Of a stretch of DNA of 64,000 nt, positions 30,246 through 63,219 are shown in pieces. This DNA is from an uncultured Acidimicrobiaceae bacterium (GTDB lineage Bacteria; Actinomycetota; Acidimicrobiia; Spongiisociales; UBA5794), in NCBI GenBank assembly GCA_964387145.1, contig CAYLVM010000002.1, forward strand, positions 31,763-95,762, given 5' to 3'. Below the pieces are notes generated by a model. It did not search any database and was not told the DNA's origin. It worked only from the letters and a program-made list of their open reading frames with translations. How positions within the stretch are numbered: the stretch's first letter is position 1; every line of letters begins with the position of its first letter. Both the position numbers and the translations under genes were made by a program.

Positions 30246-30291
30246 GTCTGGCGCCGATACAGCCCGTATGTGAGCCGTTTCAGCGCCAGAG
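30246..30291. repeat. REP-like 46-bp palindromic element, copy 0 (variant)
   Basis: GTCTGGCGCCGATACAGCCCGTATGTGAGCCGTTTCAGCGCCAGAG between convergent uppS and a phosphatase gene. Confidence 0.7.
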
Positions 30292-30296
30292 TCCTG

Positions 30297-39254: not shown

Positions 39255-39300
39255 GTCTGGCGCTAGAACAGCTCGTATACGAGCCATATCAGCGCCAGAG
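39255..39300. repeat. REP-like palindromic element, copy 1
   Basis: GTCTGGCGCTAGAACAGCTCGTATACGAGCCATATCAGCGCCAGAG. Confidence 0.8.
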
Positions 39301-39302
39301 TC

Positions 39303-39842
39303 CTAGTACCACCAGTTGTGGAAGGGGACGGGTGGGCCGACGGGGGTCGCCCGCGACGATGGGCGTGCGGGGAACCATGCGAGTTCGCGTCCCGTGCCGT
39401 CCGCCGTTGCCGCCGACAGGGCATGAACGCCTCGCAGACCGAGGCCGTGCACGAAGGCACCGATGGGCTGGCAGGTCTCATGGGGGACACGATCGCCTGC
39501 ATCGTCGAGCGGGTAGGACACGGGTAGGCCGAGCGCTTCGAGTCCATCCCCCGTCAACGCGTCGGCGACCCTCTGGCGCGACGGCAGTGTCACGGAGATC
39601 AACACGAGAGGTGCGTCGAGGTCTTCGGGGCGTACCGGCGAGCCCTCGAGCATGCGGTAGATCTGAGAACGGGCCGTGTCGAGATCCTCGTTGAGGTAGA
39701 GCGTGGGAAACGACGCCGGCGGGTTCCACCGCCCACCGTGGTGCTGGGCGTACGAGGGGTCGAGGGGATCGTCCCAGTTGGTGTCCGCGACACGAAGCCA
39801 TGTCTGGCCGTCACGGAGGCCTTCCGCTATCGGATCGATCAT
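39303..39842 (-). CDS. RES domain toxin (MbcT/Res-like NAD+-targeting toxin)
   Basis: 179 aa; RES-domain-like motifs GGRWNPPASFPTLYLNEDLDTA...E. Confidence 0.75.
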   Translation of the reverse strand: MIDPIAEGLRDGQTWLRVADTNWDDPLDPSYAQHHGGRWNPPASFPTLYLNEDLDTARSQIYRMLEGSPVRPEDLDAPLVLISVTLPSRQRVADALTGDGLEALGLPVSYPLDDAGDRVPHETCQPIGAFVHGLGLRGVHALSAATADGTGRELAWFPARPSSRATPVGPPVPFHNWWY

Positions 39843-41933: not shown

Positions 41934-41979
41934 GTCTGGCGCTGATACAACTCGTATACGAGCTGTATCAGCGCCAGAC
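41934..41979. repeat. REP-like palindromic element, copy 2 (perfect palindrome)
   Basis: GTCTGGCGCTGATACAACTCGTATACGAGCTGTATCAGCGCCAGAC. Confidence 0.85.
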
Positions 41980-41988
41980 ACCTGTAGA

Positions 41989-49687: not shown

Positions 49688-51574
49688 TCAGTTTGCCGTG
49701 AGCGGTTCGATCCGCACTGCGGTCGCCTTGAACTCTGCGGTCCCGGATTTGGGATCCCACGCGTCGAGCGTGAGGATGTTGACGTCTACGTCGTCGGGCG
49801 AGTGGATCGCCATGAAGACGAGGCCCTTGCGTAGTCCCGAACTGATCCGTACCGGGACGTCGATCGATCCCCGACGTGACGTGACCCTGACGACCTCACC
49901 TTCCTCGACTCGAAGCGCGGTTGCTTCTTGCGGTGATACGTCGATGACGGCACCGTGGCGGATCGGTGATCGGAAGCCGCCAGACTGGACGCCGGTGTTG
50001 TAGCCGTCGAGCCGCCTGCCCGTCGTGAGGCGGATCGGGAAGTCGTCATCGAGGGGATCGACGGGGGGTACCCAGTCGACCTTCGAGAACGCTGCAGGCT
50101 CGCGTGGCATGGGGTCTTCCCACAGCCAGGCGTGGAGGAACAGCGTCCCTGGATGGTCCTCGGATGGGCATGGCCATTGGAGGCCACCGAGGGTTTCGAG
50201 CCGCTCATACGTCATGCCGGTGTGCATCGGGCTCAGAGCCCGTAGCTCGTCCCAGATCTCTTCGGCGGAGCGATGTGGCCAGTCGTTGCCCAACTGTCGT
50301 GCCAACAGCGTGAGGATCTCGATGTCGTCCTTGGCGTCGGCCGGCGGTTCGAGTGCTTTGTGTACGCGCTGCACGCGCCGTTCGCTCGAGGTCACGGTTC
50401 CGTCGGTTTCTGCCCATCCGACCGCGGCCGGGAGCACGACGTCGGCCATCTCCGCTGTTTTCGTGAGGAAGATGTCCTGGACGACGAGATGGTCGAGTCC
50501 GGCGAGAAGGTCGATGGTGCGACCCGTATCGGCCTCAGATTGTGCCGGATTCTCTCCGAGGATGTACATGGCGGTGAGATCGCCGCTCTCCATGGCATCG
50601 AACATCTGGGTGACGTGCCAGCCGTTCTCTGACGGGATCGAAGTGCCCCACATCGACTCGAACTTCGAGCGGAGTTCGGGGTCGGTCACGTTCTGGAACC
50701 CGGGGAGCTTGTTGGGGAGGGCTCCCATGTCGCCACCGCCCTGGACGTTGTTCTGCCCGCGGATCGGCACGAGCCCCGAGCCGTAACGGCCGAGATGTCC
50801 GGTGAGAAGTGACAGGTTGATGAGGGCGAGCACGTTGTCGGTCGCGTTGTGATGCTCGGTGATACCCAGTGTCCAGCACAGTTGTGCAGTGCGTGCCTTT
50901 GCGTAGTCGTGGGCAAGGGAGCGGATCGCATCGGCGGGCACACCGGTGGTCGCCTCTGCATACTCGAGGGTGTAGGGCTCGACGTGGTCGGTGAACTCTT
51001 CGAAGCCGGAGGTGGAGTGCGCGACGAACTCGGTGTTGACGAGGCCTGCATGGATGATCTCACGTGCAACGGCGTTGGCGAGGGCGATGTCGGAGCCGGT
51101 GTCGATCCCGAGCCAGATATCTGCCCACTCTGCGGACTCTGAGCGACGTGGATCAACGGCGTACATCTTGGCTCCGTTGCGCATACCTTTGGCGAGATGG
51201 TGGAAGAAGATAGGGTGGGCATTACGCGCGTTGGACCCCCACAGGATGATGAGGTCCGTGGTCTCGATCTCTTCATAGGACGACGTTCCGCCGCCTGCTC
51301 CCAGGACTGCCGCCAGACCGGCGACGCTAGGAGCGTGTCAAGTTCGGTTGCAGCTGTCGACGTTGTTCGTGTGAAGCACCGTGCGTGCGAACTTCTGTGC
51401 CACGAAGTTCATCTCGTTCGTCGCCTTCGAACACGAGAACATGCCCGTAGCGTCGGGAGTGTTGCGTTGGAACCCGGCCGCTGCCCTCTCGAGGGCGACA
51501 TCCCAGCTTGCCTCGGTGAGCCGTCCGTCCTCGCGGACCATCGGCGTCGTCAGGCGTTCGTATCGTTTACCCAT
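49688..51574 (-). CDS. fdhA: Formate dehydrogenase molybdopterin catalytic subunit, predicted selenoprotein with in-frame UGA at 51338-51340 (complement)
   Basis: Continuous frame ...VDSCNRT-UGA-HAPSVAGLAAVLGAGG...; Sec aligns with the conserved Sec/Cys of formate dehydrogenases (E. coli FdhF ...RV-U-HGPSVAGL); RBS GGGAGGTG before ATG 51574. Confidence 0.7.
51311..51323 (-). promoter_or_regulatory. Candidate SECIS apical hairpin CGCC-GGUCU-GGCG, 18 nt 3' of the fdhA UGA
   Basis: Same loop (GGUCU, the Gly-Leu codons) and same UGA-to-loop distance as the E. coli fdhF SECIS. Confidence 0.5.
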
Positions 51575-51667
51575 CTCACCTCCCTTCACAGGACGCCAGC
51601 GTAACAAAGCGGCACCGTCGAGAAATCGGGACACAGCGTCCGATGCCGGCGAGTCGCCAGATGGTGC

Positions 51668-52363: not shown

Positions 52364-52424
52364 TGCAGCTCAACGCATCGCAGAATGGTACCGCACCGCC
52401 CACACCCCCTCCCCGCTCCCAGGA

Positions 52425-52470
52425 CTCTGGCGCTGATACAGCTCATATACGGTTCGATTCAACGCCAGAC
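52425..52470. repeat. REP-like palindromic element, copy 3 (degenerate right arm)
   Basis: CTCTGGCGCTGATACAGCTCATATACGGTTCGATTCAACGCCAGAC. Confidence 0.7.
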
Positions 52471-52472
52471 GC

Positions 52473-53291
52473 CTAGAAGAAGAGCCTTTTGGCAGCGTCG
52501 GTGAAGATGGCGAGGACGAGGAACCAGGCTCCGACGAGGATCAGGATGCGGCCACCCCACCTTTTCACCGCCGGACCGGCCGTCTTGAACCGGCTGAGGG
52601 TCGATGCCTGTGCAAATGTGGCACCGAGAGCGGCCAGGAACATCAGGATCACGATCATCGCGGCAGCGACCGTGAACGTGAACACCGACGTCGCGACGCT
52701 TCCGGCGATGAGGGACTGTGCGGCCAGACCGGCCAGCAGCGGTCCCGTTCAGGAGAACCCCGCCGCCAGGTAGCCGAAACCGTACAGGACGTGGCTCGAG
52801 AAGCGGGTCTCGTCGCCGATCGCTGCGCGTCTGCGGTCGATGGGCTCGGCGATTCTCGTCATGGCCGAGAAGTGCAGATCGACGACGCGTAGCTGAACAA
52901 GACCCATGACGATCAGAACGATGCCGACCACGACTCGCAGGATCCTTCCCTGGGCCGAGTCGAAGGAGAACAGGCGGGCGATGGCACCACCACCGAGGGA
53001 GAGCAGGAGACCGAAACCCACGATGAAGGCAACGGCCCCGACAGATGCTCCGGTCGCGAATCGAAGGGTATCGCGCGCCCGATGCTCCGGCGATGTCGTT
53101 GCCCGGCGGGCGAGTGTGGTCAGGAGGAGAGGGAACGAACAGGGCGAGAAGAACGCGGCGATACCGACCGTCGCGGCGACCACAACGAGTCCAACGCCGG
53201 TCGCTCCGCCGACGTCGAAGGAGCGGAACAGCCGGAACCCGACGTAGCCGGCGAAGCCGACGACGAGCGTGATGATGACGAGGAGCGCCAT
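52473..53291 (-). CDS. CcdA/DsbD-family thiol-disulfide transporter homolog with in-frame UGA (complement 52749-52751) replacing the second conserved Cys; predicted selenoprotein
   Basis: Reads MALLVII...AAFFSPCSFPLL...YGFGYLAAGFS-UGA-TGPLLAGLAAQSLIAG...RWGGRILILVGAWFLVLA; both segments are in one frame; the UGA aligns with Cys of the CcdA TM4 motif (AAGWTPCIGPILG); GGCC-GGUCU-GGCC hairpin 18 nt downstream. Confidence 0.6.
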
Positions 53292-53372
53292 ACGCGTCCG
53301 CAGCCTGGACTGCTTCAACTCGTCTCTGTCGGTCGTCACGGTTCTCCTGTGGTGTGGTGTGACTACCCTAAA

Positions 53373-53392
53373 CCTTGAAGTCGACTTCAAGG
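53373..53392. promoter_or_regulatory. Perfect 20-bp palindrome CCTTGAAGTCGACTTCAAGG between divergent merR and ccdA-like genes (MerR-type operator candidate)
   Basis: Seen in sequence; resembles the SoxR box (CCTCAAGTTAACTTGAGG) in architecture. Confidence 0.5.
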
Positions 53393-53404
53393 TCAAGAGG
53401 GATC

Positions 53405-53800
53405 GTGCAGATAGGAGAACTCGCCGGGGCGAACACCGTATCGACCGCAACGGTGCGGTATTACGAGCAGATCGGGCTTCTCGATCCCCCGAAGCGGACG
53501 GCGTCGGGGTACCGGGACTACGACCAAGATGCTTCAGCGAGACTCGGCTTCATTCGGGCTGCCCAGGGAGCAGGCCTCAGCCTGGAGGAGATCCGCACGA
53601 TCCTCGAGATATCGAACGCCGGAGATGCCCCGTGCGGTCACGTTGCAGGGTTGATAGATGAAAAGGTGAAGACGATCGCTACGAAGATCGCAGCACTTCA
53701 GGTGGCGAAGGCCGATCTCGAGGCGCTCTCCGCTCGAGCCCGAACCCTCACCGGAACCCCCTGCCCCGAAGGCTCCATCTGCCACATCCTCGCCCCATAG
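53405..53800 (+). CDS. MerR family transcriptional regulator with C-terminal Cys/His cluster (metal-responsive type)
   Basis: MerR HTH (IGELAGANTVSTATVRYYEQIGLL), coiled-coil linker, C-terminal PCGH...PCPEGSICH. Confidence 0.8.
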   Translation: MQIGELAGANTVSTATVRYYEQIGLLDPPKRTASGYRDYDQDASARLGFIRAAQGAGLSLEEIRTILEISNAGDAPCGHVAGLIDEKVKTIATKIAALQVAKADLEALSARARTLTGTPCPEGSICHILAP

Positions 53801-53802
53801 GA

Positions 53803-53848
53803 CTCTGGCGCTGAAACAGCTCATATACGAGCGGTAGCAGCGCCAGAC
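53803..53848. repeat. REP-like palindromic element, copy 4
   Basis: CTCTGGCGCTGAAACAGCTCATATACGAGCGGTAGCAGCGCCAGAC between convergent merR and PPOX genes. Confidence 0.8.
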
Positions 53849-53856
53849 GCCTGGGT

Positions 53857-54336: not shown

Positions 54337-54360
54337 GGAGCCAATGTAGCGACACCAGGA

Positions 54361-54406
54361 CTCTGGCGCCGAATCGGCTCGGATGCGAGCTGTTCCAGCG
54401 CCAGAC
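54361..54406. repeat. REP-like palindromic element, copy 5 (in a divergent promoter region)
   Basis: CTCTGGCGCCGAATCGGCTCGGATGCGAGCTGTTCCAGCGCCAGAC. Confidence 0.75.
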
Positions 54407-54565
54407 GCCAAAAGCCGACTGGTCGGAATGTTCCGGGGTCGTCTAGCCTTGTTCATAGAGAACGGGGCACGGGCGACCTTCGGGCGGCTGAGGTCCACGA
54501 CGTTCACAGAACGGAACGACCCGCTATGTCCTCCAACCCCTTGGGTGGAGAGAAGGGACCTCACG

Positions 54566-58332: not shown

Positions 58333-58349
58333 CCCACCCCCCCTCAGGA

Positions 58350-58394
58350 GTCTGGCGCTGAAACAGCTCGGATACGAGCCGTACCGGCGCCAGA
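58350..58394. repeat. REP-like palindromic element, copy 6
   Basis: GTCTGGCGCTGAAACAGCTCGGATACGAGCCGTACCGGCGCCAGAG. Confidence 0.8.
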
Positions 58395-62262: not shown

Positions 62263-63219
62263 ATGCTCAACACCATCGCCCGCGAGCAGCGGGGTGTGTT
62301 CACCATGCCCCAGGCCCTTGCATGTGGATTCCCAAGAGCAACGATCACGGGAAGGGTCGCCCGCGGTCTCTACGAGGGCATTCACCCCGGCGTATACGGC
62401 TTGGCCGGTTCGGAGGAGTCGTGGCATCGGGAGGTCCTGGCGGCCGTGCTTTCTGCAGCGGCTCCGTCGGCAGCCTCGCACCGCACGGCAGCGTACCTGT
62501 GGGGGATGATGTCGAAGCGTCCCGACATCACGGAGATCACGACACACCGACATCACAGATGTGACCGCTTCTCGTTCACGGTTCACGAGTCGAAGGATCT
62601 TCGGGCCTCCGACATCGTCGATGTCGACGGGGTACCGACCACGACGGCAGTGCGCACGGTGGTCGATCTCGGTGCATCGGCTCCCTCATGGCTCGTCGAA
62701 CGCTGCCTCGATTCGGGTCTTCGCAAGGAACTCTTCACCGCGTGGGAGGTCCGGTGCTTCATCGCCCGCGTCGCCCGTCCGGGACGCACCGGTATCGGTA
62801 CGATCCGGCCTCTCGTGACCGAGCGAATCGTCTGGAACAGCATCACAGAGTCGGATCTCGAGGACCTCTTTCGGGCGGTCGTCTCCCACCTCTCATATCC
62901 GATGCCGGATCCCCAGTTCAAGCTGTTCGAACCCAACGGCGAGTTCGTCGGGCGGTTCGACTTCGTCTACCGAGCGAGGCGAGCACTGATCGAAACCGAC
63001 AGCGAGCGGTGGCACATGGACCCGATCTCGTTCCGCAGAGATCGGGACAAGCAGAACCGTGCCCACGCCCTCGGATGGACGGTCTACCGGTTCACCTGGC
63101 GCCAACTCGTCGACGACCCAGCTTCCGTCCGCTCCACCATCACCGCCATCTGGACCGACCGACAGGACTCTGGCGCTGAAACAGCTCGGATACGAGCCGT
63201 ATCGGCGCCAGACGCCTAG
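62263..63219 (+). CDS. DUF559 (endonuclease-fold) protein with N-terminal AbiEi-like domain
   Basis: C-terminal DUF559-like motifs (GRFDFVYRARRALIETDSERWH..DRDKQNRAHALGWTVYRF); last 16 codons are encoded by REP copy 10. Confidence 0.6.
   Translation: MLNTIAREQRGVFTMPQALACGFPRATITGRVARGLYEGIHPGVYGLAGSEESWHREVLAAVLSAAAPSAASHRTAAYLWGMMSKRPDITEITTHRHHRCDRFSFTVHESKDLRASDIVDVDGVPTTTAVRTVVDLGASAPSWLVERCLDSGLRKELFTAWEVRCFIARVARPGRTGIGTIRPLVTERIVWNSITESDLEDLFRAVVSHLSYPMPDPQFKLFEPNGEFVGRFDFVYRARRALIETDSERWHMDPISFRRDRDKQNRAHALGWTVYRFTWRQLVDDPASVRSTITAIWTDRQDSGAETARIRAVSAPDA
63168..63213. repeat. REP-like palindromic element, copy 10
   Basis: CTCTGGCGCTGAAACAGCTCGGATACGAGCCGTATCGGCGCCAGAC. Confidence 0.8.

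Follow-up and report, generated by a model that had tools for sequence, protein, structure and literature searches.

Sigma-70-type promoters work best when their −35 and −10 hexamers lie 17 nt apart. In the classical mer switch (Tn21/Tn501, firmicute MerR), the regulator gene is divergent, its operator palindrome sits in an over-long promoter spacer, and the regulator carries three cysteines, the first where the dimerisation helix begins and the others close to the C terminus. Metal-type MerR sites are strong palindromes inside a spacer of 19 or 20 bp: proteobacterial MerR uses a 7-4-7 palindrome in 19 bp and firmicute MerR a 9-4-9 palindrome in 20 bp, the MerR operators reading TCCGTAC-N4-GTACGGA (19-bp spacer) or ACCGTGTAC-N4-GTACAGGGT (20-bp spacer), and the ZntR site is the 22-bp palindrome ACTCTGGAGTCGACTCCAGAGT in 20 bp (PMC1526738). 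Actinobacterial merR genes in divergent orientation are already on record (PMC3466566). Here we describe a switch of this kind in a 64,000-nt stretch of contig CAYLVM010000002.1 from an uncultured Acidimicrobiaceae bacterium (hereafter, the window). As an earlier note on this DNA had proposed, a metal-type MerR regulator gene is paired divergently with a gene encoding a CcdA-like membrane protein that appears to contain selenocysteine (Sec), and the palindrome between them is the likely operator (Table 1). We read the pair as a two-gene metal-response unit, in which a sensor of thiophilic metals would activate, by DNA distortion, the gene of a membrane protein with a Cys/Sec pair, and give this reading a probability of roughly 0.7. 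The regulatory mechanism as such, a spacer-distortion switch, is the part that we hold most firmly and consider highly probable.

Table 1. Features of the regulator/membrane-gene pair and its flanks (positions in the window)
Feature	Position	Strand	Basis or remark
merR-family regulator gene	53405..53800	+	GTG 53405 to TAG 53800, 131 aa; open reading frame (ORF), translation, Pfam
CcdA-like (DsbD_TM superfamily) membrane protein gene, 288 codons	52473..53339	-	ORFs and read-through; Cys67 in FFSPCSFP, Sec197 in GFS-U-TGP
In-frame TGA, putatively read as selenocysteine	52749..52751	-	read-through, alignment
Hairpin after the TGA, resembling a selenocysteine insertion sequence (SECIS)	52712..52746	-	fold; apical GGCC-GGUCU-GGCC at +18 to +30
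Divergent intergenic region	53340-53404	.	65 bp between the two divergent genes
Predicted MerR operator	53372..53393	.	22-bp perfect palindrome ACCTTGAAGTCGACTTCAAGGT, 9-4-9 (ACCTTGAAG-TCGA-CTTCAAGGT); sequence; conserved in orthologues
−35 TTGACC of membrane-gene promoter	53391..53396	-	GGTCAA on the + strand; overlaps dyad arm
Promoter spacer, 20 nt, containing the dyad	53371..53390	-	sequence
−10 TAGGGT (TAnnnT type) of membrane-gene promoter	53365..53370	-	sequence
Possible −10 TACCCT of the regulator's own promoter	53364..53369	+	sequence only; opposite the target's −10
Ribosome-binding site AGGAGA of membrane gene	53343..53348	-	conserved AGGAGAAC in orthologues
Repetitive extragenic palindrome (REP)-like repeat, 54 nt	52421..52474	.	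3′ end of membrane gene; flank, outside the switch
REP-like repeat, second copy	53799..53852	.	3′ end of regulator gene; flank
REP-like repeat, other copies	54357-54410; 30265-30294(-), 39274-39303(-), 41953-41982(-), 58347-58376, 63165-63194		

The palindrome is real: it spans 22 bp, and the 20-bp core given for it earlier (53373-53392) is correct. The intergenic region, previously put at 113 bp, is shorter, since the membrane gene starts at GTG 53339 and not at ATG 53292; the residues MTTDRDELKQSRLR that precede this ATG are conserved in homologues, as is the N terminus MTTDRDELK..., and AGGAGA lies upstream of the GTG. On the minus strand the region reads cTTGACC-TTGAAGTCGACTTCAAGGTT-TAGGGT-agtcacaccacaccacAGGAGAacc-GTG. 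The hexamers, whose position relative to the dyad had been left open, thus flank it with a 20-nt spacer and are directed towards the membrane gene, the dyad taking in the final three bases of the −35 hexamer and ending one base short of the −10 hexamer. This is the layout of a metal-type MerR operator, a palindrome between hexamers 19 or 20 bp apart. A standard promoter scan of positions 53200-53500 had returned nothing because it allowed spacers of 16-18 nt only. Our own scan of related loci, for TTGACN and TAnnnT separated by 19 or 20 nt with at least 8 of 11 dyad pairs, finds 28 of 78 loci with the site upstream of the membrane gene in sense orientation, and 24 of these 28 have a 20-nt spacer; over 1.3 Mb of two-strand locus sequence it returned 46 sites in total (0.035 per kb), mostly these same ones. 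When five close orthologues are aligned, the flanks vary around hexamers and a dyad that show little or no change; the −35 hexamer is the same in all five, and two of them (L005 and L008) keep TTGACC-dyad-TACGAT without an adjacent regulator gene. At the −10 position orthologues have TATGAT, TAGGGT, TACGAT or TACGGT.

The 22-bp dyad has no second copy in the window, even with 3 mismatches allowed, and is the sole perfect palindrome there with arms longer than 8 nt. When the window was simulated 200 times under a first-order Markov model, 8 of the simulations (4%) held a perfect palindrome whose arms were 11 nt or longer. Chance is nevertheless a poor explanation for the dyad, because it lies in a 65-nt gap beside a MerR gene and is conserved in orthologues; what counts is location and conservation rather than mere existence. 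Among known systems, the ZntR site of the zntA promoter of E. coli shares with it the 22-bp palindrome, the central GTCGAC, the 20-bp spacer and 16 of 22 bases.

Pfam assigns the regulator to the MerR family (MerR_1, 6e-18; MerR, 4e-13; MerR-DNA-bind, 9e-17), and an identical database protein (P0121) shares its start. As described in the earlier note, it has an N-terminal winged helix-turn-helix, a long dimerisation helix and the motifs PCGH (Cys77, His79) and PCPEGSICH (Cys120, Cys126, His127). Among 120 homologues, C77 and C126 are conserved at 100%, H79 at 98%, C120 at 88% and H127 at 78%. Metal-sensing MerR proteins are recognised by at least two of three metal-binding cysteines (PMC1526738), and all three are present here, as Cys77, Cys120 and Cys126. 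The closest relatives of solved structure are CadR (the best), Bacillus MerR, a PbrR-like protein, Tn501 MerR and CueR. The signature P-C-G-H...C-x5-C-H appears to form a three-cysteine effector site for a divalent soft metal, and not one of the CueR or SoxR type, because Cys77 (...DAPCGHV...) aligns with Cys77 of CadR and Cys79 of Bacillus MerR, where CueR carries serine; CueR also has a C112-x7-C120 loop.

None of the NCBIfam equivalog cut-offs tested is reached by the regulator: it scores 94.9 bits against 151 for CadR-PbrR, 90.5 against 143 for ZntR (85.4 against 168 for a second ZntR model), 84.1 against 150.85 for MerR (TIGR02051), 83.5 against 147.4 for CueR and 40.8 against 116.9 for SoxR; NmlR gives 62.8 against 175. 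CueR identity was rejected on the cysteine in place of serine at position 77, the C-x5-C loop and the score, so that of the CueR/ZntR-like effector site suggested earlier the metal-type cysteines stand and the likeness to CueR does not. ZntR differs in that the regulator lacks the ZntR Cys-Cys/His pattern, misses both cut-offs and has a target that is not a P-type ATPase. CadR and PbrR, the best NCBIfam and solved-structure matches, differ in score, in the His-rich tail that the regulator lacks and in neighbourhoods, which hold mercury genes here and not cadA. NmlR identity was rejected on score and residues, and SoxR identity on score and on the missing C-terminal four-cysteine cluster CxxCxCxxxxxC. 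That the regulator responds to a thiol or redox signal as SoxR or NmlR do, rather than to a metal, is accordingly very improbable. Both belong to the MerR family and use the same promoter trick, and the dyad had been likened to a SoxR box; however, its geometry, 9-4-9 in a 20-bp spacer, is that of ZntR and firmicute MerR, the three conserved cysteines occupy metal-site positions, and the neighbourhoods described below hold metal genes. Of the metal or thiol/redox signal proposed before, the metal part is retained, narrowed towards Hg(II) by the regulator's relatives, which belong mainly to mercury operons, and nothing was found in favour of a purely redox signal.

For the metal-responsive switch we propose the following model. 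A dimer of the 131-aa regulator would bind the 9-4-9 palindrome between TTGACC and TAGGGT, hexamers whose separation of 20 nt, read from the DNA, should by what is known of the family be too large for efficient open-complex formation. A soft thiophilic metal would be held by Cys77 of one subunit and Cys120/Cys126 of the other, as alignment and conservation suggest, perhaps with His79 and His127 as additional ligands; Hg(II) is the most probable metal, though at about even odds. Binding of the metal would leave the spacer under-twisted and bent, realign the hexamers and turn the membrane gene on, as in the standard MerR mechanism. Classical mer operons have divergent, overlapping promoters, and by analogy the same bound protein may also repress the regulator's own transcript, starting at or before the dyad. 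We propose this autorepression, with less confidence, because TACCCT on the regulator's strand lies opposite the target's −10 and the transcript would cross the dyad; no convincing −35 was found for this promoter. The product of the switch would be a membrane protein of the CcdA fold with a reactive pair, Cys67 and selenocysteine 197, in mid-membrane, which would most likely bind metal and move it across the membrane rather than carry only electrons, as gene fusions and neighbourhoods suggest (see below).

The proposed effector comes from what the regulator clade controls elsewhere. We surveyed the 80 closest metagenomic relatives (L092-L171) and, as longest-ORF calling in these GC-rich loci gave many antisense artefacts, counted neighbours by tblastn with named queries in the fetched loci. 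Genes of the merA or merB family occur in 36 of the 80 loci, and in 27 of the 52 that are at least 3 kb long, while a metal ATPase is present in one. In the cultured Cellulomonas terrae an orthologue with 47% identity is divergent from a MerA gene (479 bits, cut-off 454), and in a metagenomic locus (L097) the regulator, with 52% identity, stands opposite merB (211 bits, cut-off 193), which merA follows. All mercury-linked members examined have TTGACC, 20 nt and TA(c/g)GGT around a TTCCAG...CTGGAAGG dyad, versus a TTGAAG/TTCAAG half-site in the sub-clade of the window; the neighbourhood in Demequina was uninformative. By these associations, which it shares with the classical mer switch, the regulator clade appears to be mercury-linked.

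Three further gene types were counted in the same survey: a DF family (seleno)protein in 42 of the 80 loci, an unnamed membrane protein in 32 and a CcdA-like gene in only 4. The DF family protein (100 aa; NF049942; YFDGCPNW, GLSCRVY) is the commonest gene divergent from the regulator's MerR clade and often stands between the regulator and the CcdA-like gene (for example, L085 4693-5001 and L087 4035-4328). The unnamed protein, of about 160 aa (...GYAGCEVLAVSNWLLRRDDQ[IV]GCAVF...), recurs with merB-like genes in the divergent operon, in L127, L099 and some 30 other metagenome loci; it matches no NCBIfam model and could be another uncharacterised mercury-related membrane protein.

The same switch might instead answer to another soft metal, Cd, Zn, Pb, Cu or Ag, a possibility that we judge unlikely. 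It would agree with the NCBIfam ranking, in which CadR-PbrR and ZntR precede MerR, with CadR as the best solved relative, with the resemblance of the dyad to the ZntR consensus, with the conserved His79 and His127, which would suit Zn or Cd, with P-type metal ATPases near the target family in 10 loci and with the lack of merA in the window. The ranking says little, however, as all equivalog scores lie below their cut-offs, and the commonest recognisable neighbours in the clade are the merB-family and merA genes, against a single metal ATPase.

The membrane gene was followed through an in-frame TGA. This codon aligns with the Cys of AGFG-C-TGP in full-length homologues, and at this second catalytic Cys position TGA is found in 74 of 76 distinct relatives from several phyla, with TGT or TGC in the other two; the first motif, FFSPCSFP, is invariant, and the second is accordingly GF[GS]-U/C-TGP. 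Beyond the TGA, the frame of the 74 TGA loci remains open, and conserved, over 91 codons. In the same loci the synonymous positions 21, 24 and 27 after the TGA (GCC GGT CTG) are 97-100% fixed, compared with 34-58% for positions 6, 9, 12, 15, 33 and 36, and the two Cys loci deviate at the wobble positions of the hairpin, which appear relaxed. An internal positive control is provided by a formate dehydrogenase alpha-type gene (49688-51634, minus strand), whose TGA at 51340-51338 (...VDSCNRT-U-HAPSVAGL...) is followed by GCC GGT CTG GC at an identical offset. The gene thus combines the features by which bacterial selenoproteins are recognised: a UGA aligned with Cys, an open frame after it and a hairpin with G-U in the apical loop. 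The window contains no tRNA gene; the Sec-type formate dehydrogenase gene implies that Sec machinery is encoded elsewhere in the genome.

An opposite view would be that the palindrome is incidental (chance, a repeat remnant or an RNA hairpin) and the TGA a real stop, the gene being truncated or dead. Simulated windows do contain a perfect palindrome of this arm length in 4% of cases, the pair is bracketed by REP-like repeats, and for about 100 of the 120 database homologues listed the gene call ends at the TGA, leaving fragments of 180-206 aa that end in ...AGFG/S. We consider this view scarcely credible, because other loci, in several phyla, have kept the dyad and the hexamers, because the frame is open past a TGA that aligns with Cys, and because the hairpin is fixed at synonymous sites and common to the formate dehydrogenase gene.

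Judged by its sequence, the target of the switch is a divergent relative of DsbD_TM/CcdA with Sec in place of the second catalytic Cys. Like CcdA and DsbD, it is a six-helix protein of DsbD_TM type with PC...P in helix 1 and C-TGP-[IL]-L in helix 4. PF02683 (DsbD_TM) is matched by 10 of 29 family members; the window protein itself has no Pfam match at E 0.01 and fits no NCBIfam model, and the family profile matched none of the sequences of solved structures. The AlphaFold model of a Cys homologue (P0021, pLDDT 83) has CcdA (5vkv) as its top and only confident solved match, with a probability of 0.98 at a TM-score of only 0.33-0.38. Further differences from CcdA and DsbD are the selenocysteine and the genomic setting, beside a metal-sensor gene, sometimes fused to a heavy-metal-binding (HMA) domain or coupled to merA, and not beside cytochrome c maturation genes. 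A link to TsoB, a rhodanese/DsbD-fusion selenoprotein, was rejected, since the protein does not match the TsoB model. Members of the family occur in Actinomycetota, Chloroflexota, Acidobacteriota, Gemmatimonadota and some Bacillota. The 2026 catalogue of prokaryotic selenoproteins has, so far as searches by term reveal, no CcdA/DsbD_TM-type entry beyond TsoB (PMC13188914), and to that extent this is a widespread, predicted selenoprotein family outside the catalogue.

The neighbourhoods of the target family point to metals. Of 80 genome loci, drawn from several phyla, 42 have a gene of the MerR family near the membrane gene, at a distance of up to about 1.7 kb and, with three exceptions, of no more than 1 kb; since many contigs are short, this count is a lower bound. 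The MerR gene is upstream and divergent in about 23 of these loci, whereas it shares the strand of the membrane gene in others, upstream of it in 11 and downstream in 7. In L015 and L082 a MerR box of firmicute/proteobacterial type (ACTCCGTAC...) precedes the unit. In five cases (L044, L072, L055, L074 and P0081) the membrane protein carries an in-frame fusion to an N-terminal HMA (CxxC) domain, a separate HMA gene lies directly upstream in three (L070, L068 and L076), and merB-family genes adjoin the target in 6 loci. In L089 the order is merR, merA and the CcdA-like gene, the last two overlapping by four bases; this merA (565 bits, cut-off 454) encodes an N-terminal GMHCDHC motif and a C-terminal Cys-Cys, and no known transporter gene (merT/merP) was found among the genes called in the 10.8-kb locus. 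The CcdA-like gene occupies the transporter's place in this operon. MerT-type proteins move metal with cysteine pairs, and the target resembles MerT, MerC, MerF, MerE and MerH as a small membrane protein under MerR control with a thiol pair in the membrane. It does not resemble them in sequence, with no NCBIfam or Pfam match to these families even at E up to 1, and has six helices versus two to four (PMC3466566). A Sec-containing MerT-like protein of marine metagenomes is already listed in the selenoprotein catalogue (PMC13188914). On these grounds a metal-handling role of the target could be right or wrong with about equal likelihood.

Several observations weigh against the pair being a metal-response unit of this kind. 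The regulator misses the MerR equivalog cut-off, its cysteines are at 77/120/126 (C-x5-C, with flanking histidines) versus 79/114/123 in Bacillus MerR, and its half-site ACCTTGAAG matches neither published MerR consensus (TCCGTAC or ACCGTGTAC), the geometry being of the firmicute type. The nearest regulators, with more than 70% identity (L084, L092 and database pairs), have the membrane gene as their sole partner, and the case for Hg(II) therefore depends on relatives that are 45-53% identical. As an RNA fold, the hairpin after the TGA is no more stable than shuffled sequence (z = −0.42). Only about 15% of the target family's loci hold mer genes, and no merA, merB, merT, merP or DF gene is present in the 64-kb window, where, in contrast to a mer operon, the CcdA-like selenoprotein gene is the sole target; the pair stands alone in Aquibacillus too. 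By analogy with MerT/MerP, cells that have an importer but no reductase should become more sensitive, and the stand-alone pairs in the window and in Aquibacillus count against an importer, because on its own it should harm the cell. Frequent neighbours of the target also resemble a cytoplasmic reductant chain, with the thioredoxin-sized DF protein (near the target in 17 loci), flavin adenine dinucleotide (FAD) disulfide reductases without the C-terminal cysteine pair of MerA, and rhodanese genes, and the target keeps both CcdA hallmark motifs (PC...P and C/U-TGP), which fit electron transfer as well.

These last points would suit a target that is a true CcdA-type electron shuttle, whose Cys-Sec pair passes reductant outward to repair metal-blocked or mis-oxidised thiols under metal stress. 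The copper-induced Scs system is a model for such a function. A reductant exporter would be useful alone, as the stand-alone pair would have it; CcdA is the only confident fold match; and Sec replaces the second redox cysteine here, in keeping with the statement in the catalogue that Sec usually replaces redox-active cysteines (PMC13188914). We nonetheless hold this to be a doubtful account of the target, as the N-terminal HMA fusions and the translationally coupled merA-ccdA-like operon are hard to explain by it and the gene has no recurrent neighbour that encodes an extracytoplasmic thioredoxin-like partner. The metal-handling reading, taken to its full extent, would be that the family is a CcdA scaffold on which the Cys-Sec pair no longer serves electron transfer but binds and translocates mercury or another soft metal, and that the PCGH...C-x5-CH clade is its dedicated Hg(II) sensor. 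We put this forward tentatively, as an extension that is somewhat more apt to fail than to hold; if true, the mer transporters would gain a sixth type, unrelated to the others in structure and the first that depends on selenium.

As a switch, the locus is a standard MerR-type spacer-distortion promoter, with nothing new about regulation, and its interest lies in the target: a metal sensor of a clade that otherwise controls merA and merB is here paired with the gene of a Sec-containing, CcdA-like membrane protein. The regulator would thus offer a direct experimental handle on an uncharacterised selenoprotein through a metal-responsive promoter, and complete genomes could be searched with the conserved operator for the other members of the regulon. 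The pairing further raises the idea, open to testing, that selenium use is linked to the handling of mercury or soft metals in marine and soil Actinomycetota.

Some related loci have features of their own. In the cultured firmicute Aquibacillus salsiterrae (L015, 1090-2658), merR and then the Sec-CcdA-like gene form a two-gene unit behind a promoter with TTGACT, 20 nt, TAGTAT and a dyad of the GTAC-N4-GTAC type; its regulator has no cysteine at the equivalent of positions 77/79. A second MerR-type divergon lies beside the Sec-CcdA-like divergon in L088 (2562-4413), and likewise in L023; in L088 it comprises a gene for a Cys-rich metallochaperone resembling the CopZ N terminus (NF047645, below cut-off), followed by one for a glutathione-reductase/MerA-like flavoprotein without the MerA C-terminal cysteine pair. 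Rhodanese-CBS genes beside the CcdA-like gene contain two in-frame TGA codons five codons apart (VVVY-U-HDGL-U), as in L087 (5842-6600), L048 (5195-5950) and about 10 other related loci, and are split by gene callers into a 63-aa fragment and a second ORF. This is the UxxxxU pattern that the catalogue lists for the rhodanese part of TsoB (PMC13188914).

Adjoining the pair in the window is an SfLAP family membrane protein gene (PF11139; 51668-52363, minus strand) with a sub-threshold Pfam match to LysE translocators; no link between it and the switch was found. An Rfam search over the whole window returned no family, neither a SECIS model nor one for the REP-like repeats. These intergenic, internally palindromic repeats of about 54 nt (AGGACTCTGGCGCTGA...CAGCGCCAGACGCCT) are present in at least 8 copies in the 64 kb, and two of the copies flank the regulator/membrane-gene pair, one on each side. 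In L004, a related copy stands in place of the MerR-type promoter upstream of the orthologous gene.

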